64,000 nt of DNA from a virus (taxonomy: Duplodnaviria > Caudoviricetes). Below, in pieces: positions 47,228 through 63,142 of this stretch; positions within the stretch are counted from its first letter, which is position 1, and the number at the start of each line of letters is the position of its first letter. The stretch spans positions 31,653 to 95,652 of IMG/VR virus record IMGVR_UViG_3300048995_000008, one strand, 5' to 3'. The notes beneath the pieces are model-generated. The model saw only the letters and a list, made by a program, of their open reading frames with translations. It was not told the DNA's origin and searched no databases. The translations under genes and the position numbers were made by a program.

Positions 47228-48822
47228 GCTGTAGGCGGCTCCTCGCTAGTGTCAGGTTCTTCTGGTGGCTGCTCTGGCTGCACTGTCCACGTCAGGTTGT
47301 CCTGCGTGATCGCTCCGGCTAGCTCGTCATGCATCTTCTGCTTGGTGTCTGGGCTGATCGCGTCTCCCAATACGGTGCACGCCATCTGAAACTTGCGCTC
47401 GACCTGGAACGTGGCTGATGGAATCGAGACCTGCTCCAGCTGTACTGCCTGTGCGACTAGAGCGTCAGCGTCGGTAATACTGAAACGTGTGTATCCTTCG
47501 ACGTTTGGAACGTCTACCGGATCCTCTTGACGTATCGCAGCTACCATCGCCACGACCTGCATGGTCGCAGACAGCAGTCGCTTGCCGATCGCTCCGAGCA
47601 AGATCATCTGAGCCTGAGCATCCTGCGCCTTGCTGTCGCCGCTTCGTCTCAGCATGGCGCCGCTGGTGTCCTGGCTGAGAGCCATCTGCGTCACCATACG
47701 CAGGATCGAGTCACGCAGGTCCTGCACTGCCTGGCGACCGGAGTCAGCGCCAGCCATGTTTGGCCCGATAAACTCAGCCTTATCCTGATGACCCCGTACG
47801 TGAACCTGACCAGGGCCGCGCTTGCCGCGATTCGCTCTGTTTGGATCTTTCTGAGCCTCTGAGACGTCGCTGTCGATACCCGGGGACTCGGGGGCTAAGA
47901 ACTCGTACAGCTGCTGAAAGTTGTACTGAGTCCACTGAAATGCCTCACCATTCGTGCGATTGAAGTAGCTGCGGCATGACGACTCGATGAAGTCACCGAT
48001 GTGCAGGTACGTTCCGCTGGCGCAGACGTCGAATCGTATCCACGGTACTCGACCAAAGGTGTGCGGCTCTGCAGGCTTTGGCGTAACCATCTCGTCATCG
48101 CCTGGTAGACGCTTGGGACTGGTCAGTGACTTCGACTCCTCTACTTCGTATACTGTACAGTCATCAGCAGTCCAGACCGTCCAGCGGTGCGTCTTGACGT
48201 CGCGGTCTGAGCTGGCGTGCTCGGCAAACTGCACGCACTCGTATGTTCGAAGCCAGAGTAGTTTGCCATCTCTCTCCTCCCAGTCAGTCACTTGATCGGT
48301 GGGCCACGTGCACAGATACGCGTTTAGCTCGCCAGAGACGTCCTGCTCTGCCCTGGACGTCGCAGTACCGCTAGACTTCGGCAGCTCTACCTGAAGCCAC
48401 GACCAACCGCACGAGACACCCTCGACACACAGGTCACGAATCACCTGGTCGAGTGAGCGATGCTCGCTACCATCTTCGTCGACAGCCGTAGCGCACTTCT
48501 GGAACGACTGCCAGAAATCAGTCACTGTGGCCCCCGGCTCTGTCGTCTGTGGCGCTAGACGAACAGGGTCCTGCGCCAAGCCAGCGCTCGTCTGATTAAC
48601 CACCAGACCGAAGAGATTCTCGTAGAACGCTCGCCGCTTGCGCTCCTCGTAGACGACGTCTTTCTCGTGTGCGTACTTGGGAAAGATAGCTGTCATGACC
48701 TGCTCGTCAGTGAGCAGGTGGCTACCGCCGCGATACAGTGCCTTGAGGATGCGTAGTCGCAGTGCGTTGAAGCTCGGATGACACTGCTTGAGACGCTTGT
48801 ATTTGATGGGAGGAGAGGGCAT
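47224..48822 (-). CDS. portal protein
   Basis: 532 aa; LY.GG, E....Y..R..RA.Y.N, H.FG.VP, SG..K..D motifs of DUF4055/SPP1-like portals. Confidence 0.85.
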   Translation of the reverse strand: MPSPPIKYKRLKQCHPSFNALRLRILKALYRGGSHLLTDEQVMTAIFPKYAHEKDVVYEERKRRAFYENLFGLVVNQTSAGLAQDPVRLAPQTTEPGATVTDFWQSFQKCATAVDEDGSEHRSLDQVIRDLCVEGVSCGWSWLQVELPKSSGTATSRAEQDVSGELNAYLCTWPTDQVTDWEERDGKLLWLRTYECVQFAEHASSDRDVKTHRWTVWTADDCTVYEVEESKSLTSPKRLPGDDEMVTPKPAEPHTFGRVPWIRFDVCASGTYLHIGDFIESSCRSYFNRTNGEAFQWTQYNFQQLYEFLAPESPGIDSDVSEAQKDPNRANRGKRGPGQVHVRGHQDKAEFIGPNMAGADSGRQAVQDLRDSILRMVTQMALSQDTSGAMLRRSGDSKAQDAQAQMILLGAIGKRLLSATMQVVAMVAAIRQEDPVDVPNVEGYTRFSITDADALVAQAVQLEQVSIPSATFQVERKFQMACTVLGDAISPDTKQKMHDELAGAITQDNLTWTVQPEQPPEEPDTSEEPPTA

Positions 48823-50291
48823 CAGCGTCGTCTAGGTGCTGACTTGTATTCAGCTGTGTGGCCAGCCATCGCCATCTCCGCCGCCTTCTGATGCTCCTGT
48901 GCTTTCTCAGTATGCGCTGCAGCCTTTCCCTCGTTACCGGCAATGCGATGCTCCGATGCTGCCTTGTCGTGCGCACTTGAGGCATCAGCGTGTGCAGCGG
49001 CAGAGGGAGCAAGCTTGGCTAGAGCCGAGATTTGCTCGGCTCTAGCGCTGAGCGCTTGACCCTTAGTGTTAGCGCGCTGACGAACAGCGTCAAATGCAGC
49101 GTCAAATTTTGTAGTCTTCTTATTGGTGTCCTTGACTCCGAATGATGCGCGAAGCTGCTCATCGTTAGACCGACCGACTGGTCCGGCGAGCTGACGGCCA
49201 ATAGCGGCAGTGTTGAGTTTCGCGTTCTCTTTCTCAGCGAGAGCAGTATGTATCTCCATTTGTTCGTGATGAAGCTTCACCATTCCAGAGTCGCCAGCGG
49301 CTCGGTTAGAGACTATAGCTTTACTGTGAGCAGCGGCAGCTTCTGTATGCTCCTCTGGCGTGCTTGCGGCGCGGCCCTTGGCGTAGGCGGTATCTGTGTC
49401 CTTCACATGCTGTGAAGCCAAGGTGCCGTGTGTGATGTTAGCCATTCGCTGATTGAGTGAGTCATACGCAGCTGCGGCGCTCTTGGCGTCAAAGTAAGGG
49501 TTGTGTGCCAAATCTTCATGTGTCTTGGCGTACTTGGCGTGCTGTGAAGCTACGTCTGGGTGGCCTGACTCCTTAGCGGCACGTTCAGCAAGTCGATGGC
49601 GAACTGCTGCCTCACGGTGATGTGACTCGAAATTACTGTTTCTTGCTCGTTCTGTCAAATTTTCATGTGTCTTGGCGTACTTGGCATGCTGTGAAGCTAT
49701 GTCTGGGCGGCCTGACTCCTTAGCGGCACGTTCAGCAAATCGATGGCGAACTGCTGCCTCACGGTGATCTGGCTCGAGATTACTGTCTCTTGCTCGTTCT
49801 GTCGCTACTTGAGCAACACGTGTAGCTTCTTGACTTTTGGCGAAGGCTGCGTCAGCTTGCTGAGCAGCTTTTCGCGAAGCTTCAAACTTTCTAGTCTGCT
49901 CGGCTACGGGACCGGTGCCGTGCGCTGTTCGTTGATTGAACGAGTCAGAAGCAGCCACAGCGGTACTGCGCGCCGCTATCGCCGCAACACTCGACTTTGC
50001 CGTGTCCGCTGCCTCCCTCGCGTATCGCGCATGCTCGCTCCCAGGTGCTATCTTCTCAGCGGCCCTGGCGTGCTTGGAGGCCATCTGGGAGGCGTGCTCT
50101 GCCACCAGTGCGTGTGAGGCAGCGTCAGCAGTCTGACCAGCGTGGTGGGCAGCGGCGTGTGCTTCCTTCGCCTTCAGCGACTCTCTAGCGAAGTGCTCGG
50201 CTCTCGCTCCTCTGTATGCGGGATCCTTGGCCAGAGTAGAGGTCTGCTGTCGAGCGCCGAATTCTCCGGCGTAGTGAGCGTGGGTAGGCAT
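48822..50291 (-). CDS. THAHYAGE-leader family protein 1 (Ala/His-rich, 49-aa internal duplication)
   Basis: MPTHAHYAGEFGARQQTSTLAKDPAYRGARAEHFA N-terminus. Confidence 0.75.
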   Translation of the reverse strand: MPTHAHYAGEFGARQQTSTLAKDPAYRGARAEHFARESLKAKEAHAAAHHAGQTADAASHALVAEHASQMASKHARAAEKIAPGSEHARYAREAADTAKSSVAAIAARSTAVAASDSFNQRTAHGTGPVAEQTRKFEASRKAAQQADAAFAKSQEATRVAQVATERARDSNLEPDHREAAVRHRFAERAAKESGRPDIASQHAKYAKTHENLTERARNSNFESHHREAAVRHRLAERAAKESGHPDVASQHAKYAKTHEDLAHNPYFDAKSAAAAYDSLNQRMANITHGTLASQHVKDTDTAYAKGRAASTPEEHTEAAAAHSKAIVSNRAAGDSGMVKLHHEQMEIHTALAEKENAKLNTAAIGRQLAGPVGRSNDEQLRASFGVKDTNKKTTKFDAAFDAVRQRANTKGQALSARAEQISALAKLAPSAAAHADASSAHDKAASEHRIAGNEGKAAAHTEKAQEHQKAAEMAMAGHTAEYKSAPRRR

Positions 50292-52060
50292 TTTCTTCAG
50301 TCCTTTTCAGATAGACGACTGCTCGCGCAGCGTCGCCAGCTTCCCGTAGTGTGCGGCCATCCTGAGTTGTCCAGCTCGCTGTCGATCCACCCTAGACGAC
50401 AGCGGAATCTTTGTCTGATCGAGACAGAACAGTCTGTCTGCGATGCACGTAGACCTGACGATGATAGGCACGTTCTGCCACCACCCGACGACGTCAGAGT
50501 CACGCTCGCCAATCACGACAGCTTCCTGCAGTCTGACGACCGACTGAAGTGCGCTCTTCACGTCCAGGTCTAGCAGCAGCTGCAGCACCACCCGGGGTCT
50601 TGCGACGAAGGCGAATCCTCCGCCGCGAGGATCACGACCGAGCGTATTCTTCATTTCGATGCATAGCAGCTCGAGCTTGGTCAGCGGATGCTGCCTGGCG
50701 CGGTCGATCACGTCCATGCGGTCGACACCGACGACGGAGCCGACCTGAGCAGGTGTCGCGGCGCTGATCGGTGGAGTCTTGAGGACGTTGCCGTCGCGGA
50801 GATCGACAAGCTCAGGAGCTTTCTTGGTTGCGTCGCTCACTTGAACTCCGTCTCTTTCCAGTGCTGATGCCCCATCGACTCGATCATCCTGTGGTGCTCG
50901 CCAATCTCATCCCAACTCTTCTCGTGACCTGGCTCTCTAGAGATGGTGTTGACGTGTGGACCACGCGACCCGTTGGGGTTGTGATCACTACTCGTCAGAC
51001 TGGTGTGGCTCTTGGCGACGTCGTGGTTGTTCATCGCACCGACGAGGTCTGCTCGAGACGTCTCGATGAGCATCTTGCGCTGCATCCCTCTGACACGATC
51101 CTTGAACTCTTGCAGAGACATTCCAGGCACGTCTGTCTGCATACCTTGAAACACACGATGGATGAACACCTTGCGATCGCCGAACCCATGCTCCACCGGT
51201 GCTCGGTTAGCTGCGTCCTTGGCGAGACGAGCGAGGTGTTCGTCGGAGATTGGAGAGGGAGCGATGGCGGGTTTCTCAGTCTTAGGAGATATAAGAGCAG
51301 CTTTAATGCTGCTAGTGTTGTGAGATGTAATCTGCGCTGCGATGTCCATAGCGGCGCTGCGCTTACCTTTAGTTCCCCGTATAGCTATGATATCTTTATG
51401 AATCTTCTCAGCAGCAGCATGAAGTTCATGTAGTTTACTGCTTATCGGTAACAGCTGCGCTGCATTTGCATGTGCACGTGCAGCTGCGCGGTGTGCAGCT
51501 GCGCTCTGTGCAGCTGTGCTATGTACAGTCGTTCGGTTAGCTTCTACAGTGAGACGAGCAGCCTTGTCAGAGATAGATTCAGAGTGAGCGATTGCTGGCT
51601 TCTCAGTCTTATCAGGACTGCTGAATCCTGCGGCATGCCGACTAGCCACCTGAGCTGAGTTAGATTTGTCATCTGCAGATATCGAAACAGCACGCACGAT
51701 AGGAATCGGCTGCGTCATCTGCTTCGACGCATCGCGCGCAGTCTGAACGTGCGCCGGAGACAGCGCTGCTGCCTCCTTATTCAGTTCAGCCATGCGCTCG
51801 TGCACCTTCGATGTCTTCATCTTCTCATCCGGCGCAAGCGACGCCGACTTCGCTCTCGGCTGAGAGGCGAGTGTCTCGCGCATAGACTGGTTGTCTATCT
51901 TCTGCGTCTGCTTAGCGTGCGGCTCTGACTCTCGCGCGAGTACGTTTTCGTGCTGTCTAGCTGCCGTGTCCGCTGCCTCCCTCGCGTATCGCGCATGCTC
52001 GCTCCCAGGTGCTATCTTCTCAGCGGCCCTGGCGTGCTTGGAGGCCATCTGGGAGGCGTG
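49998..52060. repeat. 99-bp perfect direct repeat (49998-50096 = 51962-52060)
   Basis: Identical by manual comparison; lies in the shared N-domain of two THAHY genes. Confidence 0.9.
50307..50840 (-). CDS. hypothetical protein (possible isolated capsid A-domain-like fold)
   Basis: GTGA-coupled; GWWQNVPIIV. Confidence 0.55.
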   Translation of the reverse strand: MSDATKKAPELVDLRDGNVLKTPPISAATPAQVGSVVGVDRMDVIDRARQHPLTKLELLCIEMKNTLGRDPRGGGFAFVARPRVVLQLLLDLDVKSALQSVVRLQEAVVIGERDSDVVGWWQNVPIIVRSTCIADRLFCLDQTKIPLSSRVDRQRAGQLRMAAHYGKLATLREQSSI

Positions 52061-52246
52061 TGCTACGACCAGAGCATGCGCAGCTCGATCGACGTGAGAC
52101 TCTGCCACGCGATGAGCCTCGCCAGACTTCAGCGCCTCCCTGGCGAAGTGCTCGGCTCTCGCGCCTCTGTAGGCTGGATCCTTAGCCAGAGTAGAGGTCT
52201 GCTGTCGAGCGCCGAACTCTCCGGCGTAGTGAGCATGGGTGGGCAT
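50837..52246 (-). CDS. THAHYAGE-leader family protein 2
   Basis: Same N-domain as protein 1; distinct C-terminal globular domain (FGDRKVFI...EFK...SRADLV.AM). Confidence 0.75.
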   Translation of the reverse strand: MPTHAHYAGEFGARQQTSTLAKDPAYRGARAEHFAREALKSGEAHRVAESHVDRAAHALVVAHASQMASKHARAAEKIAPGSEHARYAREAADTAARQHENVLARESEPHAKQTQKIDNQSMRETLASQPRAKSASLAPDEKMKTSKVHERMAELNKEAAALSPAHVQTARDASKQMTQPIPIVRAVSISADDKSNSAQVASRHAAGFSSPDKTEKPAIAHSESISDKAARLTVEANRTTVHSTAAQSAAAHRAAARAHANAAQLLPISSKLHELHAAAEKIHKDIIAIRGTKGKRSAAMDIAAQITSHNTSSIKAALISPKTEKPAIAPSPISDEHLARLAKDAANRAPVEHGFGDRKVFIHRVFQGMQTDVPGMSLQEFKDRVRGMQRKMLIETSRADLVGAMNNHDVAKSHTSLTSSDHNPNGSRGPHVNTISREPGHEKSWDEIGEHHRMIESMGHQHWKETEFK

Positions 52247-52253
52247 CTACTTC

Positions 52254-52520
52254 CTATATTTCTTCGACGTGAATGAACGAGCTTGCCGCCCAAGCAGTGT
52301 CAAGAGCATTAAAGAACTCCTCACCATCGTCAATCGTCAGCTTGCGCTTGCTGTTGCTTGACAGAACTCCAACGTTCTCGATACTATCCTTGAACGATTT
52401 GTTTTCATACTCAGCCATCACCTTATCATCACGCAACGTGAACGTTGCCATAGTCTCAGAGCGATCTGGTGTGATGCACCGAACGATCTTAGAGCGATCC
52501 GATGATTGTGTCGATCTCAC
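52254..52520 (-). CDS. small protein coupled to the kinase gene (possible partner/immunity)
   Basis: Overlaps the kinase gene 3' end. Confidence 0.55.
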   Translation of the reverse strand: MRSTQSSDRSKIVRCITPDRSETMATFTLRDDKVMAEYENKSFKDSIENVGVLSSNSKRKLTIDDGEEFFNALDTAWAASSFIHVEEI

Positions 52521-53940
52521 TCTTACCTCCCTTAGAGACCATGTGTCCTACATTGTGCGTGAATAGTTCCCACCCGTCGTGGCCAGGTTCACTAGACTGT
52601 GGTTGCATGATGCTGCTGTCCTCTTTGATAGCTTTGGCCCTGAGAAGACTGTGCCGGATCGCTTCCTTCTCTATGCCTGCTGCATGAAGGGTTTGCGCGA
52701 CATGGCGCAGATCGATGCTATCGATCATCTTCTGCGTATTGCGGTGTAGCTCATCTTTGATGGTCATCGAAGATACAGGTTGGATAAACCTGACTGGCTC
52801 TCCCTTTGGAAATGACAGGCCATGATCGATCAGGATAGGGTGAGGACTCCCATCCGCTTTCGTACCAACTAGCAGGTTGTGAGCATGACGATCACTGTTA
52901 CCGACTACATAGTCGAAGACTCGTATCTTCTCGCTATCCTCTTGGTTAAACTTATGACCGCTCTTCATTGAACCATCGAGTGGACCATGAAATGGATCGC
53001 TAGTGAGTTGCGTACCATCTTTCCAACGCTGCATGGACCCGACTTTACCACCATGATCTCGCACGACGGTCTCTGGAATCATATCATGCATGCCGAAGTG
53101 CGCAGCTAGGTTAGACGCAGCCACTTCGCGCTGATAGTACGTCCCAGGATCGATGTTCGGTCGTGCGCGAACTTCACCCTCAGATGGCTTGAAGACTGCC
53201 TTGCTCCCGTCCTTGAATGTGATCACCTGACTGCTATTCTGCCCTCCACCGAGGTCAGCTGCACTAGCGATCTCAGCAGTGCGCAGTGAGCCAGTCTTCT
53301 CAGACTTAGTCTCAGAAGCAACGCTCTTCTTAGCTTCTTCAGCGTGCTTCTTCGCCTCGTTCGCTTGCTTCCTTGCTTCGTCTGCGTGCTCCTTGGCTTT
53401 CGCAGTCTGTTCCTTCAGCTGTGCAACGTGCGTCGCCTTCTCCTCATTATCTTTCGCCTTCTGCACGTCGATCTTCTTGGTCTTCGCCTCTTCATGCGCG
53501 TCAGTCTTGCTCGACTGCACCTCTTCATGAGCGTGCTTCGCGATCTTTGCGTGCTTAGTCGCCTCGTCTGCCAGCTCAGAGCCCGGATGCACCTTGGTGA
53601 CGAATCGAGCGTGAACTGCGGCACGATCAGCTGCGTGAGCTATGGTGGCTTCGTGCTGCAGCTTCTCTTCTGGTGTCTTCGCCTTGGCGTGGCTAGTGAG
53701 TGCCGTCAGCGCCTCCTTGGCGAAGTGTTGGGCACGCGCAGCTCTGTAGTGAGGATCCTTCGAGTTGTCTTTCGACAGCTTCTGAGATCCGTCGACAGCT
53801 TTCGCCGCTGATTTCTCAGCACTAGCCTGATCGATCTGCTTCCCAGGTTGTCGCGCACTGCCGAACTCACCAGCGTAGTGAGCATGTGTGCGCGACTGGC
53901 CGGAGTCGCGAGTCTTGCCTGTGATCTTCTCCAGTGGCAC
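52489..53940 (-). CDS. THAHYAGE-leader family protein 3 with C-terminal HipA/PI3K-PI4K-like kinase domain
   Basis: LGGGQN P-loop, VFKP..GE, REVAA, GSMQ.W, DY..GN.DRH..N, LIDHGLSF. Confidence 0.85.
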   Translation of the reverse strand: MPLEKITGKTRDSGQSRTHAHYAGEFGSARQPGKQIDQASAEKSAAKAVDGSQKLSKDNSKDPHYRAARAQHFAKEALTALTSHAKAKTPEEKLQHEATIAHAADRAAVHARFVTKVHPGSELADEATKHAKIAKHAHEEVQSSKTDAHEEAKTKKIDVQKAKDNEEKATHVAQLKEQTAKAKEHADEARKQANEAKKHAEEAKKSVASETKSEKTGSLRTAEIASAADLGGGQNSSQVITFKDGSKAVFKPSEGEVRARPNIDPGTYYQREVAASNLAAHFGMHDMIPETVVRDHGGKVGSMQRWKDGTQLTSDPFHGPLDGSMKSGHKFNQEDSEKIRVFDYVVGNSDRHAHNLLVGTKADGSPHPILIDHGLSFPKGEPVRFIQPVSSMTIKDELHRNTQKMIDSIDLRHVAQTLHAAGIEKEAIRHSLLRAKAIKEDSSIMQPQSSEPGHDGWELFTHNVGHMVSKGGKSEIDTIIGSL

Positions 53941-53945
53941 GGCGC

Positions 53946-54212
53946 TCAGACAACCTTCTCGAAATTCAGCGTCTGCACCTTGATCGGTTTCATCTCATGC
54001 TCGAACCACAGGCCGTCGTCTAGCACGATCTCCCCATCGACTACCGAGCACGGTGTGACTACGTGCGGTCCGTGCGGCACTGAACCTTCGACCACAGTCA
54101 ATGGACCGAACACTGTAGTCTTGAACGTCGTACCGATCGGAATTGGTCGCCCTGAGTAGAAGCGAAACCCACGTATACCTGGTGGTAGCGCGCCGATAGT
54201 GATGGTAGACAT
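53946..54212 (-). CDS. hypothetical protein
   Basis: Tightly packed ORF. Confidence 0.5.
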   Translation of the reverse strand: MSTITIGALPPGIRGFRFYSGRPIPIGTTFKTTVFGPLTVVEGSVPHGPHVVTPCSVVDGEIVLDDGLWFEHEMKPIKVQTLNFEKVV

Positions 54213-54488
54213 TCAGTTAGTCTTTCTCGCAATAATCTCTACAGTGGCACCATTCGAATCAGTGTGCGTCACACAATCACCCATCTCAATAGCATGATTT
54301 GTGATCATTCTAGCGTGATACACACAGAGCAGCATCTCAGAGTCATCTGGTCTCTTACCGATTATTGTCGGTAGTCTAGGACAACCGTGGATGTAGCACT
54401 TTTCATCACTCATTCGGCATCTACTCCCCCATAACTTTTGTCTTAACTGCGTGCGTCCAGGAGTAGAAGCAAATGCCACGGACACCAA
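54213..54488 (-). CDS. small Cys/His hypothetical protein (AT-richer)
   Basis: C.IHGC...LCVYH; true start probably at MSDEK. Confidence 0.45.
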   Translation of the reverse strand: MVSVAFASTPGRTQLRQKLWGSRCRMSDEKCYIHGCPRLPTIIGKRPDDSEMLLCVYHARMITNHAIEMGDCVTHTDSNGATVEIIARKTN

Positions 54489-54519
54489 GTGGAAGAGAGT
54501 TCATCTTTGATGAGTGACA

Positions 54520-55272
54520 TCAGCCTCCTGCCTTTTTGGTATGCATCTTAGCCAGTCTGATGTGATAGTCGTATGCCTCTGGCTGTCCGCGCTTCATCGC
54601 CGACTGGGCAGCCTCGGTGTGCGCCTGCGCCGCGTCTGCGTGACTCTTGCGATCTTCAGTGATTTCTGCCGCAGAGGAGAGATGTCTTGCTGCTCTACTT
54701 AGATTTCCACTTGACTTCTGTGACTGCGCTGCATGCACATGTGCCTGTGCCGCGGCGCGAAAGTCGTTAGCAGAGACGGCAGTCTTCTGTATCTTCTCAG
54801 CACGACTGGAGAGCTTCGAGGCTGCGTGCTTTTGCATCTGCTTCGCAGTCAGCTTGATTGAACTCTCCAGATACTTGGATCTGTCCTTCAGCGCTGTAAT
54901 GGCAGACCAGTCCTTTGGCGAGACGGCAATCTTACTGAGTTTTCTGATGGCCTTGGCAAGATCAGCCATCTCACTGCGCTTACTAGACTCCTCAGACTTG
55001 GTCTTTGATTGCTTCTCTTTCGGTGCTTTGGGAGCCTTGTCTTTCGGCGCCTTGCTCTCTTTCGGAGCCTCGCTCTCTTGCGGTGCTCTCTTGGGCGTCG
55101 ACTTCGGCTTCCCAGACTCTGTCTTCAGTGGCGTACCTGATCTAACACTGTACGGATTACCGCTGCTTCCGAATTCACCTGCGTAGTGCGCGTGAGTTCT
55201 TCCACCAGATCCTCGAGATCGAGTGCCAGTGGCGTAATCCCTGGACTTGCCTATGGCCTTAGCTAGCGGCAA
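54520..55272 (-). CDS. THAHYAGE-leader family protein 4 (Lys/Ala/His-rich)
   Basis: RTHAHYAGEFGS near the N-terminus; AAQAH..AA repeats. Confidence 0.75.
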   Translation of the reverse strand: MPLAKAIGKSRDYATGTRSRGSGGRTHAHYAGEFGSSGNPYSVRSGTPLKTESGKPKSTPKRAPQESEAPKESKAPKDKAPKAPKEKQSKTKSEESSKRSEMADLAKAIRKLSKIAVSPKDWSAITALKDRSKYLESSIKLTAKQMQKHAASKLSSRAEKIQKTAVSANDFRAAAQAHVHAAQSQKSSGNLSRAARHLSSAAEITEDRKSHADAAQAHTEAAQSAMKRGQPEAYDYHIRLAKMHTKKAGG

Positions 55273-55818
55273 CTAGCTCCATGTCTGGATGACGATCTCC
55301 TCGCCACACGAGCAATCGAAATCAAACGAAGCACGAATCACCGGTCGCAGTTTGAGCACAGTGCTGCAATTAGTTGATTCACAGAGAACCATTCATGATA
55401 AAGTGAATTCCACAGCCCAATACTACAATAGACATGATAATAAGTGCAACTCCTCTCCAGAACTCCCAATCTTGGTCGGTCATGACTTAGCGTCCCTCTC
55501 GTGACTCTCCCTGAGAATCTTCACCTCTGCCTTGCTCAGCATTACACGGCTGTCGCTCGAGTAGTCCGTCCACGTCATCACCGCCTGCTCCACCCGGGAG
55601 GAGTCGCCGAGGTGGTCGAGTACGTAGCTGCTCGGCAGGATCTTAGCCTCCTGACCGAGCTGCATGACCTCTGGATCGCTTGCCTGCAGCTGCAGTGAGC
55701 GCAGCGTCGTTGAGATCCTGCCACTGCGGGCACGGCTTGCCCTCGTAGTTGAGGCCGCGACAGCTCGCCATGTAGATGGCGTAGAAGTCACGAGCGCGGA
55801 CTACGACGCTTGCGTGAG

Positions 55819-56331
55819 TCATCGACCCTTTTCTTTTCGCTGCACAGTCTTGTCGACCATCAGCCAGTAGTCTGGGTCGATTGAACGGAATTCTACGACG
55901 TCAGACTGGACTTCTACGACACAAGACTGCTCTTCTACGACACAAGACTGCTCTTGCGGATGTCTCAGCGCTTGCGGATGTCTCAGCGCTTGCGGATGCC
56001 TCAGCCAGCGGCTGTATCGCTCTCTTGGCGGTGACAGCTCGTTCGTCTTGCAGAACCGGTCGATCAAACTGGCTAGTGAGCTACAGTTCTGTGTTGCGCC
56101 GATGTCAGTGGTGGCTACTCGCATAGACAGCCAGGCGACGAATCCGTAGACAGCCTCGCTTGCGCTGAGCTCGAGTCTTGGCTTTGGACGCGACTCGATC
56201 GCGTTTGCAAACCAGACGAGCATGGTGCCGTAGTCTGGTCGCAGGCCGCTTCTCACGTGGTCCATGAACTCGTCAGCCCACTTCACAGCATCGTCGCCGC
56301 ACTCCTTGATGATTTCTGCGCTTGTCTTCAT
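55819..56331 (-). CDS. hypothetical protein with short tandem repeats
   Basis: DA.KWA.EF...M..WFANAI motif; LRHPQA x3. Confidence 0.55.
   Translation of the reverse strand: MKTSAEIIKECGDDAVKWADEFMDHVRSGLRPDYGTMLVWFANAIESRPKPRLELSASEAVYGFVAWLSMRVATTDIGATQNCSSLASLIDRFCKTNELSPPRERYSRWLRHPQALRHPQALRHPQEQSCVVEEQSCVVEVQSDVVEFRSIDPDYWLMVDKTVQRKEKGR
55890..56006. repeat. adjacent 21-bp (x~3) and 18-bp (x3) tandem repeats
   Basis: CTTCTACGACACAAGACTGCT and CTTGCGGATGTCTCAGCG units. Confidence 0.85.
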
Positions 56332-56417
56332 TGACTTGTTTCTCCACCGTGTTTGGATTGCTCGTCTGCGGCTGCGAGCCACTCGCTCATGCGTCGAGCA
56401 GCTCAGAGCCAGACGAG

Positions 56418-56723
56418 CTATTGCTCGGGATCGAACCCGTCGAGATCGAAGTGCGTGAGATCAGGCGCTGGCCCGACAATCACGGTGACGACCAGCGGAA
56501 CTACAGAGCCGATGCTGACGTCACAGGTTCCCTCACCGACGCCGTGAATAAGGGCGCGCCGGTCGTTGCCAGGATCGAGCGACACCGTCGCTACCGCGTT
56601 GTTGTTGCTCGACATGGCAGTCGTCCCTCCGGAGACTGGCGTCGTGCCGTCGATGCTCGAGAAACGGGTGAACCGCACCGGGCGATCTTTGGTCTTGTGA
56701 ACAGTAGTGCTCGCTGTAGACAT
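56418..56723 (-). CDS. small Ig-like (Big_2-like) protein
   Basis: SSNNNAVATV...I.GVGEGT..VSI; AAGGA RBS. Confidence 0.6.
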   Translation of the reverse strand: MSTASTTVHKTKDRPVRFTRFSSIDGTTPVSGGTTAMSSNNNAVATVSLDPGNDRRALIHGVGEGTCDVSIGSVVPLVVTVIVGPAPDLTHFDLDGFDPEQ

Positions 56724-56802
56724 AGTTCCTTCTTGTAGGTGTATCGACTCAGCCCAGGACCACCTCCCTGCGAAACGAGGTGAACGAAGACTTGTCGAAA
56801 GG

Positions 56803-57072
56803 TTAGAACTTCGCGTCGCCAGGCGCGGTCACGTGCGGTGGTACGATGATCGGCCATCGCCACTGGCCAGGACCGTCGCCGTTGGTCATGCTCGTCAACC
56901 AGAGCTGAGCTGGACCGTCGACCATGCACTGCACGTTGATCTTCCCGTCGTCGAACACGCGAACGACAACGGCCGGACACTCACGTGCGCCATTGTTCAT
57001 GTTAGGAATCTGCTCCAACTGAGCGTCGCTGAGCGTAACTATCACGATTCTTCCGATTGACGGTTTCTGCAC
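56803..57072 (-). CDS. conserved phage hypothetical protein
   Basis: PSIGRIV...PAVVVRV....IN..V..DG...PGQW.WP; AAGGAG RBS. Confidence 0.65.
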   Translation of the reverse strand: MQKPSIGRIVIVTLSDAQLEQIPNMNNGARECPAVVVRVFDDGKINVQCMVDGPAQLWLTSMTNGDGPGQWRWPIIVPPHVTAPGDAKF

Positions 57073-57112
57073 TGTAGATCTCCTTCTGTTGTAAGTGAGA
57101 CAGCTGCGATTC

Positions 57113-57700
57113 TTACCTGAGCAGCCAGTCTGCCAGGTCGGGCGGCATAGACGCGATCGTCTTCGGCACAGACGCTGAACCCTTCTCCACACCGACGACG
57201 AGCGCCAGGATCGACGCCATCACGTCACTGCCGACGCTGTCTGTTTCCTCAGCGGTGTCGCTGACGACCAGGCCGTACCGCGACCCGCCGAGTCGCTGCT
57301 TGAACTGGGCACTGTCGTATATCAGCACGCCACTAGCTTCACCATTGTTCGCAGCGTCTTGCTGCGAGTCGAAGATGACGACGCGATCGTGGATACTGCC
57401 GATCACGACGACCCAGTGGTCTACGCCGTCGACGCACAGAATCGTCGGAGAGCCGCGATCGAGCGAGGCGCGGATGCTCGTCAGCAGTGCGTCGAGCGGT
57501 TGTCCTCGCAACTCCTGCACGCTGTACTGTAGCACGCGCAGCGCGCATGCGATACCCTTCTCGTCTGTCCCATTCTCTTTCGTGGTGCCGGCTAGCTGCT
57601 TGATCCGAGCTATTTCCGACGTGTGGTCGTGGCCGAGTGCTAAACACGCGTTGACGATCGCGTAGACGCCGCAGGACCATGTATCGGGTTGGAGAAGCAT
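57113..57700 (-). CDS. C39-like cysteine peptidase
   Basis: Q....SCG (catalytic Cys), GT, HWVVVIG (His), IFDS (Asp). Confidence 0.8.
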   Translation of the reverse strand: MLLQPDTWSCGVYAIVNACLALGHDHTSEIARIKQLAGTTKENGTDEKGIACALRVLQYSVQELRGQPLDALLTSIRASLDRGSPTILCVDGVDHWVVVIGSIHDRVVIFDSQQDAANNGEASGVLIYDSAQFKQRLGGSRYGLVVSDTAEETDSVGSDVMASILALVVGVEKGSASVPKTIASMPPDLADWLLR

Positions 57701-58614
57701 CAGTCCTCGAGGTCGACGCTCGTTAGTGCAGCGTCAATGACAGATACGCTCTGGCAGGTTGAACCACGTAGGTGGCCGGATGAGCAGTGACAGACAGTGC
57801 TTTCGCCGTTCGTCGCGATCGCCGCGTCGTGCGTCTTCTGCAGCTCGAGCACCTTGCTCTCCATGAGATCAACGTACTCGCGCATCTTCTGAGTCGCGGC
57901 GCCCATGCAGATCTCGTCCTCTAGCGTGAGCTTCGTGTCGTCTGGCTCCTGTTCTCGCAGTGCAATCGAGCCGAGCCGTGCGTACTTCTCGACGCTGGTG
58001 TGCCCGTCCCATCCGGGTGCCTCGCGTCGCGGGAGAAAGCTGAACCACTCGACTTCGCTGTCGTGAACATGCCAGGAGACCTGACCGTAAGGTGTGACGA
58101 CGTAGACCACGTTGAGCCAGTCAGCGTCCCACTGCTCACCTTCGTGCAGTCCAACCCATGCCTTCCATCCTAGCACCACGGCGAACTTGGCGAAGAAACA
58201 GACGAGCATGTCACGCTCGCTGTAGACAGCGTCCTTATCCTTGCGGAGCACAGCGACAGTCTCTTTGAGCTCGGCATTGTCTTCTGCTGTTTGGTTGAGA
58301 GTGTCGACCAATACGTCGTCACAGGTGTTGACAGCACGTAAGCTTCGGAGACTCTCATTCTCCGTCATGAGCCGTAGGATCGTTGCTCCATAGCTGTGCT
58401 CACTGCCGTTGATCGACTCTGCGTATCGCCGAAGATCCTCGCGCTGCGTGTCTGTCAGTCTAGAGTCAGTCATTGGATTCCACCTTTGTCTTAGAGCTTC
58501 ATTCTTCGCTGCTCCCAGATGATCTCTGAGAGAAGACCGCCGAGGTCTGTTGCCTGCTTGTTGCTTAGCGTGAGCTGGTAATGCTGTTGCGGTTGCTGCC
58601 AGTCGTTCAGCCAT
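57700..58614 (-). CDS. coiled-coil plus WDGH-motif phage protein
   Basis: Y.ER..L...GQVSWH...WDGHT; alternative start at 58473. Confidence 0.65.
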   Translation of the reverse strand: MAERLAATATALPAHAKQQAGNRPRRSSLRDHLGAAKNEALRQRWNPMTDSRLTDTQREDLRRYAESINGSEHSYGATILRLMTENESLRSLRAVNTCDDVLVDTLNQTAEDNAELKETVAVLRKDKDAVYSERDMLVCFFAKFAVVLGWKAWVGLHEGEQWDADWLNVVYVVTPYGQVSWHVHDSEVEWFSFLPRREAPGWDGHTSVEKYARLGSIALREQEPDDTKLTLEDEICMGAATQKMREYVDLMESKVLELQKTHDAAIATNGESTVCHCSSGHLRGSTCQSVSVIDAALTSVDLED

Positions 58615-58785
58615 GTCTCTACACCACTATACGAGGTGTGGTGTTGATGCGGACCTCGGTGAATACACGGCTCACCGAGCTTGGGACTGATCGACGTGCA
58701 GGGAGACCAGGCGTTGCGCTCCTGCTTGGTCAACTCACGCTGGCCAGGACAGATATGTTGAGTGGCTCGCAGTCCTAGACCATCT

Positions 58786-59028
58786 TCACGACCTAACATC
58801 GCAATGAATAACGTCGCAGTTTGCACATTTGACGCACACGCAGAAGGGATAGATACCTCTACAGACACACTGCGCTTCAGGTATCGTTCGCGTGAACAGA
58901 TATGGATGGTCAGCGTGCGACTTTCCGGCATAGTGTCTCTGTTGACAGTGAGTACAGTCGATACAGATACATTGAATAAGTGGCATTCCGCAGCTTGTGC
59001 AGAAAGACATATCGAGTGCCTCTGTCAT
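58786..59028 (-). CDS. Cys-rich small protein
   Basis: Multiple CxxC/CxC motifs; AT-richer segment. Confidence 0.4.
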   Translation of the reverse strand: MTEALDMSFCTSCGMPLIQCICIDCTHCQQRHYAGKSHADHPYLFTRTIPEAQCVCRGIYPFCVCVKCANCDVIHCDVRS

Positions 59029-59036
59029 ACATTGTC

Positions 59037-60347
59037 TCAGGTCGTCGTACTGTCAGTGATCAACCCAAGCGACACCAACGCCGCGAGGAGCGACACCAAC
59101 GCCGCGCCTGCAGTCTTAGAGCCAGTGACTGTCGGCTTCGTCACTGGAGTCGCGCTGAAGAACCCGAACTTGCTAGACAGGTGGCGAATACTGCCGTCTG
59201 TGCCGAAGTCCGCGATGGTGGCGTTGTTGGTCGTTTGACGAAACCGCAGCACGCTACCCGACCCTGTCGGTTGGTCGAAGCTGTACTGGTTGCCGCCGGA
59301 TGGGTCACATAGAGTAAGCACGTGACCTGTAGCGCTCGCTTCTGCCTTGATCTTGATGCCGATGGCACCACCGAGCATGAAGAAGTCCTTGTCGATCACC
59401 CACTGAGTAGTCGGGGTGGAGTCGTGTACGGCCAGCACGTCGCCAGTCTGCGATGGTCCTCGCCGTAGACGCATCGTCGCCATCGCAGGTTCGTCATCTT
59501 GAGCAGAGACTTGAATCCTGGCCGACCCGTTTGGTGGTGTGACACCGACGCCGAACGTTGGCGACAGAGAGCCGCGATGCAGCGCGTACAGCAGATCGAT
59601 GACAGAGTTGCGCGTGATCGTCACGCGAACACCAGTTGCTGTGATCGTCGCATTTGCACTCAGCGTCAGGCTGTTGACGCTGGCGACTGACGAGACCGTC
59701 GTGCCGTTTGGAACACCTGGACCACTGACTGCTGCGCCGACGAGCGCAGACGAAAATCCTCCCAGGGTTGCACTCGTCACTGTCGGCGAGCCGCTGGTCG
59801 TCACACCATCAGTAAACGAGTAGGTGTTCCGAACGCCGACTGCGACGAAGTCACGCTCTGGCGAGTTTGCCGTGTCGATGCCAGAGAACCACGTGCCGTT
59901 AGCGCCGATGTAGTTGAGCTCTAGGCCCTGAAGCGGACCTGGCGCGCCGGTCGCGCCGACTGGACCTTGTGAGCCGGCGTCACCCTGAGGGCCAGTCGAC
60001 CCGGTGAGGCCGCTCATTGGCCAGAGACTGAGTCCAGTGCCGTCTGCGACTAGAACGCACACGCCAGATGGTGGAATAACGAGCGACACAGCGCCAGGAC
60101 ATGTCACTCTGTTGACTGCAAGGCTGCGAATATCAGCGTGCGTGATGATTACATTTCCGGTGACTGCGTCGTTTCGCAGCAGAACCAATTCGACGTTGGA
60201 GAACGAGCTGTAGTCGAAGCCAGTGATCGTCGAATCACTGCTGACTGGCAGAAGACGCCACACCGTCGGCATGCGACCTGCGCCGGTACCGAGGTTGTGA
60301 TTGAACTTGCTAAGTGTAAGTGGAGCTGTCTGCGTGCCTAGATTCAT
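59037..60347 (-). CDS. fibre/decoration-like virion protein with short collagen (GXY) segment
   Basis: GSTGPQGDAGSQGPVGATGAPGP; G.GVP.GTTV......LTLSANAT module; L..LGLITDST C-terminus. Confidence 0.7.
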   Translation of the reverse strand: MNLGTQTAPLTLSKFNHNLGTGAGRMPTVWRLLPVSSDSTITGFDYSSFSNVELVLLRNDAVTGNVIITHADIRSLAVNRVTCPGAVSLVIPPSGVCVLVADGTGLSLWPMSGLTGSTGPQGDAGSQGPVGATGAPGPLQGLELNYIGANGTWFSGIDTANSPERDFVAVGVRNTYSFTDGVTTSGSPTVTSATLGGFSSALVGAAVSGPGVPNGTTVSSVASVNSLTLSANATITATGVRVTITRNSVIDLLYALHRGSLSPTFGVGVTPPNGSARIQVSAQDDEPAMATMRLRRGPSQTGDVLAVHDSTPTTQWVIDKDFFMLGGAIGIKIKAEASATGHVLTLCDPSGGNQYSFDQPTGSGSVLRFRQTTNNATIADFGTDGSIRHLSSKFGFFSATPVTKPTVTGSKTAGAALVSLLAALVSLGLITDSTTT

Positions 60348-60381
60348 GTCTTTACTCCTACAGCGTCAGTGCTGGCTGACG

Positions 60382-62121
60382 CTACATCTCGCTGCCTTGG
60401 TCGTAGTCTGCCTCAGTCACTGGTGGACGGTCTCTGTACAGCAGATTCCACCCGTGTGCTGCAGCATCGATGATGTCGTCGTGAAGATCGTCCACGCCAG
60501 TGAACAACTTGAACTCCTCGATCAGTTCGTCTGCCCAGTCTTCGTCGATCGGCACGTGAACCCGACCTTGGTTCCACGCAGTGCTGAGAGGAATGGAGCG
60601 TGTGAACTTGTCCTTGCCACCGACTTCGACGTCTACGATCCTGAGCTTGTTGTTCGCTCGTCTGAGCATCTGCGAGACAGCGCGACCAGCGTTGGCCGCG
60701 ACTGTCTCGACAGCGATGAGCAATCTGTACTTGCGCTGTATGCGCTCGAGGATCGTAGTGACCTCGGGAACCTCCTCCTGTACGTGAATACAGTCGTAGA
60801 TCCACATCTCGCTCTCGACGCCGTAGCCTGACATCGCGACGACGAGGATGGCCGAGAAGTCAGCGCTGGTCTTAGCACTCGCCGCAGTGTCAGCTGGGAT
60901 GCAGGCGCGCTTCCTGGTCCAGGTGAACTCACTCTTGCGCAGAACTTCACTGTAGTGTCTCGCCTCTAGTGCTGTTCTGCTCTCGTCCTGCATGCAGGTC
61001 AGGCGCGCCTGAGCAGCGGCTGGAAGTGCTGCGTACTGCGTATGTGTGAAGACCCGCGCATTCTCCTTGAAGACAGTGTTCTTCTGGTAGCGCGACGGCT
61101 CGTGAAAGATCGCCTTGCCGATTGGCCGAGGCGCGCCACCGTAGAGCGCCCACCACAGCGCCTCACCAATCGTCCGACGAATGTCGTCAAGGTGTCCGTC
61201 GTGACCACAAGGCTCGGTACAGATCGCATATGGATACTTCTGAGACCAAGCGACCTCGCCATACGCTTCGTCCTTCAAGTCCTTGATCGGACCGAACCTA
61301 GCTCTCTCAGCGACTGACAGCGCGAGCCACTGGGTTTTGCTGATGATCCTTCGTCCAAGGATGTCATCCTTGGAGTCAGCCACCGTCGGAACGTGGATAC
61401 GATCCCACTTGAGGTTCTTGTTGATCCAGCCGATCAGATCGTTCTCACCCCACCGGGTGTGCAGCACGAAGATTGAGCCACCCTGCAGTCGAGTGTACGC
61501 CACTCCCTTGAATCGCGAGATCACCTGGCCGTTGATCGCGATGGAGCGAGCCTCTTGCTCGTCCTTGTATGGGTCGTCGTAGAGGATGACGCCAGGTACT
61601 CGCTGCCCAGTTAACTTGCCACGTGCGCCGGCAGCGATCAGACCACCGCGCTCTGGCGTGTGCCAGTGGCCTTTCGCCTTGCTGTCTGCCGCGAGCCTGA
61701 GACCGGCGACGCTGGCGTAGTCTAGCGCCAGCGACGACTTGTCCATCGCCTGGGCGCCGGAGTACGTGACGTAGGCGTTCTGGTCAGCAGGCGAGCGACA
61801 CAGCCACCAGATCAACAGACGAAGTAGAATCGTGGTCTTGGCGTGACCTGGACCTACGTCGATGGTGACGCGCACCGGAGCAACGCGCGCCTGCTCGATA
61901 GCGTCGACGACCGGCAGCAGGTGCGCCGGCACTGGCTCGTCCGGCCAGAGACGCGAGACGAAGTCGACTGGACACTCGCCGCCAACGAGAGACTCGAGTC
62001 CGTCTGTGAGCTCAGCGCGCTCCTGATCAGACAGGAACTCGAGGTTGGCAGGATCGTACTGCGGCAGAGCGAGACGTGTCACCAGAGCACCGATGATGAG
62101 TCTATTAGACACGACAATCAC
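60382..62121 (-). CDS. terL: terminase large subunit
   Basis: Walker A GPGHAKTT, LTG, Walker B ILYDDPYKD, TRW..NDL, nuclease DTA...DFSA, DKFTR, HDDIIDA. Confidence 0.93.
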   Translation of the reverse strand: MIVVSNRLIIGALVTRLALPQYDPANLEFLSDQERAELTDGLESLVGGECPVDFVSRLWPDEPVPAHLLPVVDAIEQARVAPVRVTIDVGPGHAKTTILLRLLIWWLCRSPADQNAYVTYSGAQAMDKSSLALDYASVAGLRLAADSKAKGHWHTPERGGLIAAGARGKLTGQRVPGVILYDDPYKDEQEARSIAINGQVISRFKGVAYTRLQGGSIFVLHTRWGENDLIGWINKNLKWDRIHVPTVADSKDDILGRRIISKTQWLALSVAERARFGPIKDLKDEAYGEVAWSQKYPYAICTEPCGHDGHLDDIRRTIGEALWWALYGGAPRPIGKAIFHEPSRYQKNTVFKENARVFTHTQYAALPAAAQARLTCMQDESRTALEARHYSEVLRKSEFTWTRKRACIPADTAASAKTSADFSAILVVAMSGYGVESEMWIYDCIHVQEEVPEVTTILERIQRKYRLLIAVETVAANAGRAVSQMLRRANNKLRIVDVEVGGKDKFTRSIPLSTAWNQGRVHVPIDEDWADELIEEFKLFTGVDDLHDDIIDAAAHGWNLLYRDRPPVTEADYDQGSEM

Positions 62122-62720
62122 ACAGCTCCCTCAGCTCGAGTAGCAGCTATCTTCTGCTGTTCAGCTAGTTGTCTCTCTAGTCTAATCGTGTCCGCTCTGT
62201 TCTGGTGATGCCCTGCCTGCTTCTCGTGCAGAGTTACGGTCTTCGCGTCACCGGTGTTAGCCTTGGCTGCCGCCCGGTGTGACGCTGCAGCGGCCTCCTG
62301 GGTCTTCACGCTCGGCGCGTCGCTGGCGATCTTCGTCTTGCCGAACGCGCTCTTCGTAGCGGCCTTCGCCGCTGCGGTGCGCGTCTCGGTCGACGTGATC
62401 GGTGGCTCAGCGTGAGCGAGACTTGCCTTCGCCAACTTGGTCGTCTCGTAAGCCTGAGCAGCATAGGTCGCGTGCTCGCTGCCAGGCGCCATCCTCTCGG
62501 CCGCTCTCGCGTGCTTCGCCGCCATCTGTACGGCGTGCTCTACGACCAGTGCGTGCGCGGCGCGCGCGCTGCCGACTGCACTGCCGTGAGCCGCTGCAGC
62601 GACCTGCGCAGTGCGTGCGAAGTGCTCAGCCCGAGCAGCGCGATAGACTGGATCCTTCGCCAGCTTTGAGGTCTGCTGTCGCGAGCCGAGCTCGCCTGCG
62701 TAGTGAGCGTGGGTGGTCAC
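62118..62720 (-). CDS. THAHYAGE-leader family protein 5
   Basis: MTTHAHYAGELGSRQQTSKLAKDPVYRAARAEHFA; GTGA-coupled to terL. Confidence 0.75.
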   Translation of the reverse strand: MTTHAHYAGELGSRQQTSKLAKDPVYRAARAEHFARTAQVAAAAHGSAVGSARAAHALVVEHAVQMAAKHARAAERMAPGSEHATYAAQAYETTKLAKASLAHAEPPITSTETRTAAAKAATKSAFGKTKIASDAPSVKTQEAAAASHRAAAKANTGDAKTVTLHEKQAGHHQNRADTIRLERQLAEQQKIAATRAEGAV

Positions 62721-62819
62721 GTGAGCCTTCTCATGGTATCATCCACTTCTCACCAGTCAGCTGGCTCTTGACGCTATCCGGAGGGCCGTCGCCCACTGCA
62801 CTATAGTTGCGAACGCTGA

Positions 62820-63050
62820 TCACTGGACGTCCTCACTATCGATACGAGCTATCATTATCTTGTTTGCGTCCGTGTTGGACACGCCAGTCGCGATCAGTTC
62901 GTCGAACTGCTTCCGCTTCTCGAGGAGACCAGCGTATGCCTTCTGAAAACATGGATCGCACGTGTAGTGCTTCAGTTCCTCACTGTCTGGCAGAACGAGT
63001 GTAACGATCTCGTCAGTTGGAGTGCCGCAGCCGAGGCAGGGAGCGCTCAT
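62820..63050 (-). CDS. small Zn-finger protein
   Basis: CLGC...CDPC; GGAG RBS. Confidence 0.55.
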   Translation of the reverse strand: MSAPCLGCGTPTDEIVTLVLPDSEELKHYTCDPCFQKAYAGLLEKRKQFDELIATGVSNTDANKIMIARIDSEDVQ

Positions 63051-63142
63051 CTCACCACTCCCATTGCTTCGTAACGGCGAAGGCCCTGATCGGTCTGCTG
63101 TCGCGAGCCGAGCTCGCCTGCGTAGTGAGCGTGAGTAGGCAC
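63047..63142 (-). CDS. THAHYAGE-leader mini-gene (31 aa)
   Basis: Not in ORF track: MPTHAHYAGELGSRQQTDQGLRRYEAMGVVR*; starts 1 nt after the upstream stop and ATGA-overlaps the next gene. Confidence 0.65.
   Translation of the reverse strand: MPTHAHYAGELGSRQQTDQGLRRYEAMGVVR

Follow-up and report, generated by a model that had tools for sequence, protein, structure and literature searches.

A head-module protein family of an uncultured soil phage that joins a conserved N-terminal peptide and helical bundle to variable C-terminal domains

We describe a family of proteins encoded in the head module of an uncultured soil phage, which is represented by a 95,652-bp virus record of IMG/VR (IMGVR_UViG_3300048995_000008; 100% complete according to CheckV). 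A stretch of 64 kb of this record (bases 31653-95652) was analysed; it is referred to as the window, and all coordinates are those of the window unless another record is named. Five genes, A to E, encode proteins that carry the decapeptide THAHYAGE[FL]G at or near the N-terminus, followed in four of them by the same helical module, and their C-terminal parts are unrelated. Homologs recovered from metagenomes have this architecture too, bear ADP-ribosyltransferases (ARTs), kinases and other domains as the variable part, and are encoded next to head genes, in two relatives directly at the portal gene; in a small sample, the module and the MuF domain were found in different phage records. We think it on balance probable that A to E constitute a lineage-specific family of recombining cargo proteins that would be loaded into the head and injected, in the manner of the MuF proteins and of the T4 proteins with a capsid-targeting sequence (CTS), by means of a new N-terminal carrier unit and in a lineage that has no MuF.

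The shared peptide and the N-terminal unit

A six-frame translation of the window yielded exactly six matches to THAHYAGE[FL]G, all on the minus strand and in the same six genes in which a preliminary description of the sequence had placed them. The 30 nt that encode the motif show synonymous differences in seven of the ten codons, and the sole replacement, a Phe/Leu exchange, is conservative. Since the codons vary synonymously to this extent, it is, judged by the sequences, the peptide and not the DNA that selection conserves, with purifying selection acting on the motif and the module. A degenerate 24-nt pattern of the motif has no more than three matches in the entire set of 2.9 million contigs of IMG/VR, and the third of these (L002) looks like a chance match.

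Gene A (62118-62720, minus strand), the stop codon of which overlaps the start of the gene for the large terminase subunit (TerL), encodes 200 aa with the decapeptide at residues 3-12, the three-helix module and a conserved C-terminal 'PITSTETRT...' domain that is common to the homologs P0001, P0003, P0004 and P0009, the last of which adds an ART. Gene B (54520-55272, minus strand; 250 aa) is a long form, in which a basic N-terminal extension of 25 aa precedes the decapeptide (residues 26-35); a Lys/Pro-rich linker and His/Ala helices follow, and the three-helix module is missing. The other long form, gene C (52489-53940, minus strand; 483 aa), with which B has the N-terminal extension (17-25 aa) in common, combines the decapeptide at residues 18-27 with the module, a Lys/Glu linker and a PI3/PI4-kinase/HipA-like kinase (Pfam PI3_PI4_kinase, PF00454, 2e-9), in which the kinase motifs GGGQN, VFK, DRHxxN and IDHG are present. 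Gene D (50837-52246, minus strand; 469 aa; decapeptide at 3-12) continues with the module, repeats and a C-terminal 'GDRKVF...RADLV' domain, which recurs in P0004, P0006 and P0011. Gene E (48822-50291, minus strand; 489 aa; decapeptide at 3-12) consists of the module and His/Ala helical repeats; its stop codon overlaps the start codon of the portal gene and it is an ortholog kept across relatives (P0010, P0029, P0041). Within gene E, a 147-nt tandem duplication (49506-49799, 93% identity) gives rise to two His/Ala helical units of 49 aa.

The domain of ~95 aa that follows the peptide, with the signature KDP.YR.ARA.HFA...PGSEHA, is common to A, C, D and E, and the C-termini of A to E are mutually unrelated; on both points, and on the HipA/PI3K-like kinase, the preliminary description was right. 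Its sixth family member, a leader-only mini open reading frame (ORF) at 63047-63142 on the minus strand (31 aa from GTG, or 42 aa from TTG at 63175), we do not retain as such. It shares the peptide alone, as B does; over its first 51 nt it matches the 5' end of gene A with 94% identity, and with its stop codon it overlaps the start of a 76-aa zinc-ribbon ORF (62820-63050), so that it is probably a recombination footprint and not a sixth cargo. A second trace of exchange is a 99-bp stretch (49998-50096) that is identical to 51962-52060, exactly and without extension; the two copies lie where the shared module of E and D gives way to divergent C-termini, and they indicate that gene conversion or cargo swapping may have occurred there. 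The A-E proteins are basic (isoelectric point 8.6-10.2) and rich in His (4-7% versus 2.9% for the proteome). Searches of A, B, D and E against Pfam and PHROGs returned nothing specific to the N-terminal module, the sole match of protein B being a weak one to SNAP (residues 143-236; E 0.0022, 18 bits, below the 25-bit cutoff).

An AlphaFold2 (AF2) model of the gene E product, built from a 33-sequence alignment, predicts residues 1-17, including the peptide, as coil (predicted local distance difference test, pLDDT, 54-60) and residues 24-124 as a three-helix bundle (pLDDT 93-98). A coil ahead of a confidently modelled bundle is what a short linear motif would lead one to expect. Invariant residues are T3, H4, H6, E10, F11 and G12 in the peptide region and H45, H66 and H74 in the bundle, where the conserved residues are mostly Ala and His, making it a His-lined bundle. 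Known folds for the module were sought with Foldseek in the PDB (best E 0.64) and in BFVD (best E 0.32), with generic helical bundles as the only outcome, and a search of the ESM Atlas with the module gave no usable match. The leader is thus not part of a known folded domain, the peptide being flexible in the model and Foldseek giving no specific relative. The preliminary description had taken the bare leader as the conserved unit, and this has to be revised in that the conserved unit is the peptide together with the three-helix bundle.

Family members, their cargo and their linkage to the portal

Word-seeded searches recovered nine homologs, and an exhaustive profile search of 1.84 billion representative proteins recovered 39 clusters at E <= 1e-3, 33 at <= 1e-10 and 17 at <= 1e-30. 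In all but one of the 39 clusters the module begins at residue 1. The family is rare and unannotated: the module has no match in Pfam, PHROGs, the PDB or cultured phages, no close match among cultured phages was obtained by tblastn with A, the C39 peptidase (see below) or the portal, family copies numbered 0 in 50,697 phage records, and 185,579 species genomes contained no prophage copy. The profile search of the N-terminal region, which had been advocated in the preliminary description, brought to light 39 clusters with varied C-termini, and linkage to head genes was seen in every relative locus recovered.

The consensus of the peptide within the family is T-H-x-H-[YFRK]-x-[GE]-E-F-G. Around half of the members start with M-x-T-H, and in the other half the peptide is preceded by a conserved basic extension of 12-17 aa, of the type MPL[ST]K..GK..., which ends with Gly or Arg ahead of the Thr. 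A Pfam inventory of 41 members gave ADPrib_exo_Tox in 16, ART in three, PI3_PI4_kinase in two and DUF2213 plus DUF6582 in one; the remaining members were without a family and many of them consist of His/Ala helical repeats. No nuclease cargo was seen among the family members. The ART domains belong to the C3/VIP2/iota type (1qs2 is matched at 5e-13) and their catalytic motifs R, S-T-S and E-x-E are visible in the sequences. The C-terminal domains have been shuffled, P0004 combining an A-type middle with a D-type end and P0009 an A-type part with an ART; the middle domain of gene A recurs in P0001, P0003 and P0004 and is the part joined to the ART in P0009. This spectrum (16 of the 41 with ADPrib_exo_Tox, two with a kinase, others with shuffled domains) bears out the view of a polymorphic family with a conserved N-terminus and variable C-termini. 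A cognate immunity gene directly downstream, by which polymorphic toxins are classically recognized, was not found: the ART gene in L007 is followed directly by the next family member, and the 88-aa ORF after the kinase of gene C (52254-52520) has no homolog in any recovered relative locus. Pfam domains of the LPD type, as in polyvalent proteins, had no match in A to E or in the 41 members.

A late module on the minus strand takes up the right third of the window; it is transcribed in the order TerL, a block of small genes, portal, a zinc-finger gene, a scaffold-like gene, the major capsid gene and tail genes. TerL (60382-62121; phrog_38, 6.7e-57) and the portal protein (47224-48822, 532 aa; phrog_145, 6.6e-30; 121 homologs, several of which have a C-terminal C39 domain) were identified by PHROGs, both on the minus strand, and A to E lie in this head module on the same strand, as had been stated before. 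In every relative locus that was recovered, the family gene has head-module neighbours, which agrees with the earlier expectation that homologs of the motif would be linked to head genes. The linkage to the portal is tight: in L004, whose portal is 66% identical, and in L010 the start of a family gene is located at the stop codon of the portal gene, the family gene of L010 being the orthologous leader-kinase gene, and the genes overlap by start and stop in three genomes. In L007 a leader-ART gene is directly followed by a leader-His/Ala gene. In relatives, the family is accompanied by the zinc-finger gene and by two small accessory genes of the window (50307-50840 and 53946-54212).

When 77 IMG/VR loci whose portals are related were searched with the module profile, only the window and L004 matched. 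MuF (PF04233, PF06152) has no match in A to E, in the whole 95.6-kb genome or in the record of L004, which accords with the preliminary observation that no MuF gene is visible; Pfam MuF is present in the records of L014, L016, L024 and L025, all of which lack the module. The module occupies the MuF slot where MuF is absent, and the two are mutually exclusive in a small sample of two records versus four. The earlier suggestion that the family may replace MuF holds as far as the portal-adjacent slot and the exclusive distribution are concerned, but is weakened by the size of this sample.

The peptide in unrelated phages and the C39-type peptidase

The peptide was also found in two otherwise unrelated IMG/VR phages, with 10/10 residues identical in L003 and 9/10 in L001. 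In L003 it is part of a 953-aa protein, encoded between portal/MuF/topoisomerase IB and the capsid gene, which is composed of DUF2213, THAHYAGEFG with the module (profile E 1e-21, P0027), DUF6582, His/Ala helices and an acidic scaffold-like tail. The protein of L001 is a 319-aa DUF2213 protein that ends with ...DDTHAHYAGEYG plus 14 residues. PHROGs assigns the DUF2213 proteins of L003 and L001 to the head maturation proteases (2.6e-74 and 8.1e-93, respectively), so the motif occurs in kinds of proteins that, by this annotation, work inside procapsids.

Tags of the type H-D/P-x-x-G-[RK]-F occur in L003, L014 and L024, and a core G-x-[FLY]-[GA] is common to the leaders of the family and the differing tags of sister phages (DHG[RK]FA in L014). 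Homology of the module to the N-termini of sister ART or His/Ala proteins was considered and found to be weak for L024 (probability 38%, E 3e-4) and lacking for L025, L014 and the 284-aa protein of the window. Some further observations on these phages can be recorded. In L014 (14735-15277) a gene that starts with MGSFDESKHPRDHGKFAESAG, located between the scaffold and C39 genes, continues in another frame (15003-15173) into the C-terminal half of an ART (EKEILLPRG), apparently by a frameshift or a sequencing error. A type IB DNA topoisomerase (PF01028, 2e-24) of L003 (3133-4086), the gene of which lies between those for MuF and for the DUF2213 polyprotein, has the tag KHPRGDHGRFAASG in its N-terminus, and the polyprotein itself has two GNQH[IA]GG motifs at module borders.

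The late module encodes a free-standing C39-type cysteine peptidase of 195 aa (57113-57700, minus strand; Peptidase_C39, PF03412, 25.9 bits with a Pfam cut-off of 22 bits). Q4, C10, H95 and D111 are invariant in nine C39 sequences. Its AF2 model is structurally closest to ComA PEP (3k8u, TM 0.77), PCAT1 and LahT150 (6mpz), with E 3e-7 and TM (template modelling score) 0.71-0.78. Seven sister portals, which are 53-55% identical, have a C39 domain at the C-terminus behind a Pro/Gly linker (P0053, P0055, P0056, P0060, P0063, P0068 and P0088); the protein of the window is 37% identical (9e-20) to residues 596-724 of P0053 and has an additional helical tail of ~50 aa as compared to the portal-fused domain. 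In L014 a free C39 copy adjoins the scaffold gene. The C-terminal crown of the portal faces the interior of the capsid in the structures of SPP1 gp6, P22 gp1 and T4 gp20, and the portal-fused peptidase would for that reason be placed inside the head. Proteases of the S77, S78, ClpP and DUF2213 types were not found in the genome, and C39 is the only recognizable peptidase in the head module. We regard the enzyme as a candidate for a protease inside the head and for the reader of the N-terminal peptide. In favour of the second role are the G-x-[FLY]-[GA] core that the leaders have in common with the sister tags and the A-L-G inserted in the two family members that have no Gly after E-F.

Several other genes of the minus-strand head module recur in relatives. 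The 80-aa zinc-finger protein (46985-47227) is kept just after the portal or after leader genes, and its conservation beside these was seen in L004, L008, L010 and L014; it is one of three small Cys-rich (zinc-ribbon or CCHC-like) ORFs in the module, the others being located at 62820-63050 and 58786-59028. The acidic scaffold-like protein (46116-46808, 230 aa; 53% identity to L004, 44% to L014) has the same place ahead of the capsid gene, and the major capsid protein (44716-45786; phrog_9953, 3.9e-10) is 86% identical to that of L004. A 177-aa accessory protein (50307-50840) is kept beside leader genes in L005 and L006 and lies between TerL and portal in L014, and the 88-aa accessory protein 'GxRFYSGRPxPxGT' (53946-54212) lies directly upstream of leader genes in L006, L007 and L009. 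The region between TerL and portal further contains a WDGH-domain protein (57700-58614; PF25311, 3.4e-11) and a protein of 436 aa (59037-60347) that includes a short stretch of collagen-like Gly-x-y, an unusual location for fibre-like genes, and a 187-aa ORF (55819-56382) without a family match shows short tandem peptide repeats near its C-terminus (ALRHPQ three times, EQSCVVE twice).

The start of the contig (G000:C1:1-130) repeats ~130 nt of the window at ~63144-63270, and when the contig ends are joined the 284-aa His/Ala-rich ORF (63144-63998) runs in frame into a small CxxC protein; these two features suggest that the genome is circular or permuted and was cut at a repeat. A TerS-like (small terminase) gene (G000:C1:1020-1841), homologous to the gene ahead of TerL in L014, then lies upstream of TerL, separated from it by extra inserted genes. 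Gene A was considered as the small terminase and rejected: its ortholog in L006 does not lie beside TerL, its domain is also fused to an ART (P0009), and this gene at the other contig end is the better candidate. The phage also encodes 5-hydroxymethyluracil DNA-modification genes.

Proposed function, rival explanations and known systems

The N-terminal unit comprises an optional basic extension of 12-25 aa, the flexible T-H-x-H-x-x-x-E-F-G and the basic, His-lined three-helix bundle. As we see it, the unit would serve to load A to E into the procapsid, at the portal or close to it, a role that elsewhere is played by MuF or the T4 CTS. Together with the DNA, the variable C-terminal parts would then enter the host and act on it early in infection: a PI3/4-kinase-like kinase in the phage studied here and C3/VIP2-type ARTs in relatives. 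The His/Ala-rich basic helices may be plain internal head protein, and new cargo would arise by recombination at the border of module and cargo. The preliminary description had viewed THAHYAGE as a signal for ejected cargo; the polymorphic, head-linked and MuF-exclusive nature of the family and the flexibility of the peptide speak for it, but the signal would have to be extended to the bundle, which is part of the conserved unit as well.

The SPP1 protein gp7 is the MuF that has been studied. In the MuF polymorphic toxins of temperate phages, which are encoded right after the portal and of which 14% are ARTs, delivery with the DNA has been hypothesised and is largely untested (Jamet et al. 2017, PMC5576092). 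They resemble the family in their conserved N-terminal part with variable C-terminal toxin domains, in the adjoining portal gene and in the frequency of ARTs. However, the family lacks the MuF domain and has instead the three-helix bundle with a flexible, invariant decapeptide, comprises five paralogs per genome versus one, and differs from these toxins of temperate phages in the lack of a prophage copy in the 185,579 species genomes, in the 5-hydroxymethyluracil genes of the phage and in that nuclease cargo was not seen among its members. In T4, a CTS is found on the diverse internal proteins IPI-III, and the ART Alt is packaged; the signal has ~10 aa, binds to the scaffolding core and is removed by the gp21 (S77) protease, which cleaves after Glu (PMC3012670, PMC5512222). 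Again there is a short N-terminal peptide on otherwise unrelated basic proteins and an ART as effector, and just as the T4 cargo includes host-modifying or anti-defence enzymes, the putative cargo of the family bears enzymes. Unlike the CTS, the peptide of the family is followed by a conserved bundle, and it can lie 12-25 aa inside the protein or, in other phages, internally or C-terminally. No gp21-type (S77) prohead protease (PF03420) was found in the genome; a T4/phiKZ-like cut after A-G-E was rejected, as the residue three positions before E10 is not conserved and an S77 protease is missing. Considering that the tests for the MuF domain and the T4 protease both fail, the family, as far as sequence tells, is a member of neither system although it would work like them. 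Polyvalent proteins and effectors fused to portal or MuF, finally, have kinase and ART modules among virion genes for which injection is predicted (Iyer et al. 2017, PMC5512222). Kinase/ART modules, effectors fused to the portal and recombining cargo are likenesses, but the family consists of separate genes, each with its own tag, and not of one giant polypeptide.

The C39 double-glycine leader peptidases (ComA PEP, PCAT1 and LahT150) have the same fold and the same Gln/Cys/His/Asp catalytic set as the enzyme of the window. In exporters, the C39 domain is tethered to a translocation channel and removes the N-terminal leader of the cargo in transit, and in the sister phages it is tethered to the portal channel. 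In the phages, however, no ABC transporter is involved, and the candidate leader ends with a hydrophobic residue and Gly (E-F-G) instead of Gly-Gly and is without the amphipathic LSxxELxxI helix of exporter leaders. If A to E are indeed loaded and injected, it is possible, though doubtful, that the peptide is a docking or cleavage leader for the C39 peptidase at the inner face of the portal, with a cut after the invariant hydrophobic-Gly pair. Taken as a whole, a scheme in which the decapeptide is read by a C39 enzyme tethered at the inner mouth of the portal (covalently in the sister phages, non-covalently here), with the cargo docked by its leader and cut after hydrophobic-Gly at maturation or ejection, seems unlikely to us. 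Around two thirds of the members have G-[GAS] after E-F, and two members without Gly after E-F have an inserted A-L-G instead, so that a canonical double-glycine site was considered and fits only partly.

Several points weigh against the proposal of a head-loaded, injected family. Encapsidation, ejection and the role of the peptide are things that we infer from position and analogy, for a group that has no cultured relative, and the exclusivity of MuF and module is seen in just two records versus four. ARTs of the C3/VIP2 type are known, too, as exotoxins, which exert their action outside the cell that produces them. Portal, capsid and scaffold of L003 and L001 are none of them BLAST-similar to those of the phage studied here, and no C39 was seen in the partial records of these two; because of this, a phage-specific docking partner or protease poorly explains the conservation of the peptide, and since the peptide also occurs in DUF2213 proteins of phages without BLAST-similar head proteins, no partner for it can be named. 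The module of L003 sits in a protein that already contains a scaffold part and would for this reason not be needed for targeting there. The N-terminal peptides are different ones (DHG[RK]FA, NPDQARDSSGKW) in sister phages whose portal, scaffold and C39 are homologous, and ~8 of 36 family members have a Pro straight after E-F-G, a poor fit to a cut by C39 at that position.

Of the rival explanations, the one that survives best regards A to E as internal head or assembly proteins and not as delivery vehicles, i.e. as scaffold-like, core or DNA-condensing filler, with the decapeptide as a maturation cleavage or assembly motif and with enzymes that are secondary and act, if at all, in the producing cell. 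It would account for the many members that have only His/Ala helical repeats and no enzyme domain, for the basic nature of A to E, for the conservation of the gene E ortholog across relatives (P0010, P0029, P0041), and for the occurrence of motif, module and similar helices in the protease-scaffold polyprotein of L003 and of the motif on the maturation protease of L001. We regard it as rather unlikely, since ~44% of the members have intact toxin-type enzymes with cytoplasmic substrates, C-terminal shuffling is typical of effectors and not of structural proteins, and five divergent paralogs per genome would be unusual for a scaffold.

A second possibility is that the proteins are late-expressed, unpackaged toxins or host-manipulating enzymes, which act in the infected cell or are released at lysis; the N-terminal unit would then have a regulatory, oligomerisation or metal-binding function and the position of the genes would reflect late timing. 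C3/VIP2-type ARTs are classically exotoxins, BLAST of head proteins across the phages revealed no partner for the tag, and the module is a generic helical bundle, all of which would suit this explanation. The start/stop overlap with the portal gene in three genomes, the mutual exclusion of module and MuF in the same slot, the embedding of the motif in procapsid proteins of other phages and the lack of a signal peptide and of an adjacent immunity gene (in L007 the gene next to the ART is a family member) make it quite improbable. Least probable in our judgement, and compatible with packaging, is that T-H-x-H-x-x-x-E is mainly a metal-binding hook that closes onto the His-lined bundle: the 2-His/1-Glu spacing is that of cupin motif 1, short forms begin with X-T-H after Met removal and resemble an amino-terminal copper- and nickel-binding (ATCUN) site, His residues are among the invariant positions of both peptide (T3, H4, H6, E10, F11, G12) and bundle (H45, H66, H74) in proteins of high overall His content, and chemistry in place of a protein partner would explain an identical peptide in phages that share no head proteins, but the idea derives from a sequence pattern, with neither structure nor homology in its favour, the peptide is unfolded in the AF2 model, F11 and G12 are just as invariant although they are not metal ligands, and long-form and internal copies have no free N-terminus.

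Ten residues are almost perfectly conserved between phages whose head proteins are unrelated. New in this head module is a predicted C39-type leader peptidase, the orthologous domain of which is fused to the inward-facing C-terminus of sister portals, and this portal-linked peptidase points to an unstudied kind of head-internal protease. If the peptide is indeed its leader, the system would be the phage counterpart of the peptidase-containing ABC exporters (PCATs), its peptidase would define a new class of head proteases, and injected proteins would bear a readable address code. And if A to E are loaded and injected as we propose, the peptide-bundle unit would be a new, sequence-readable address for enzymes delivered by phages of a MuF-less lineage, early-acting ADP-ribosyltransferases and kinases would become predictable from metagenomes, and the unit, being compact, may serve as a handle by which foreign proteins are loaded into capsids.

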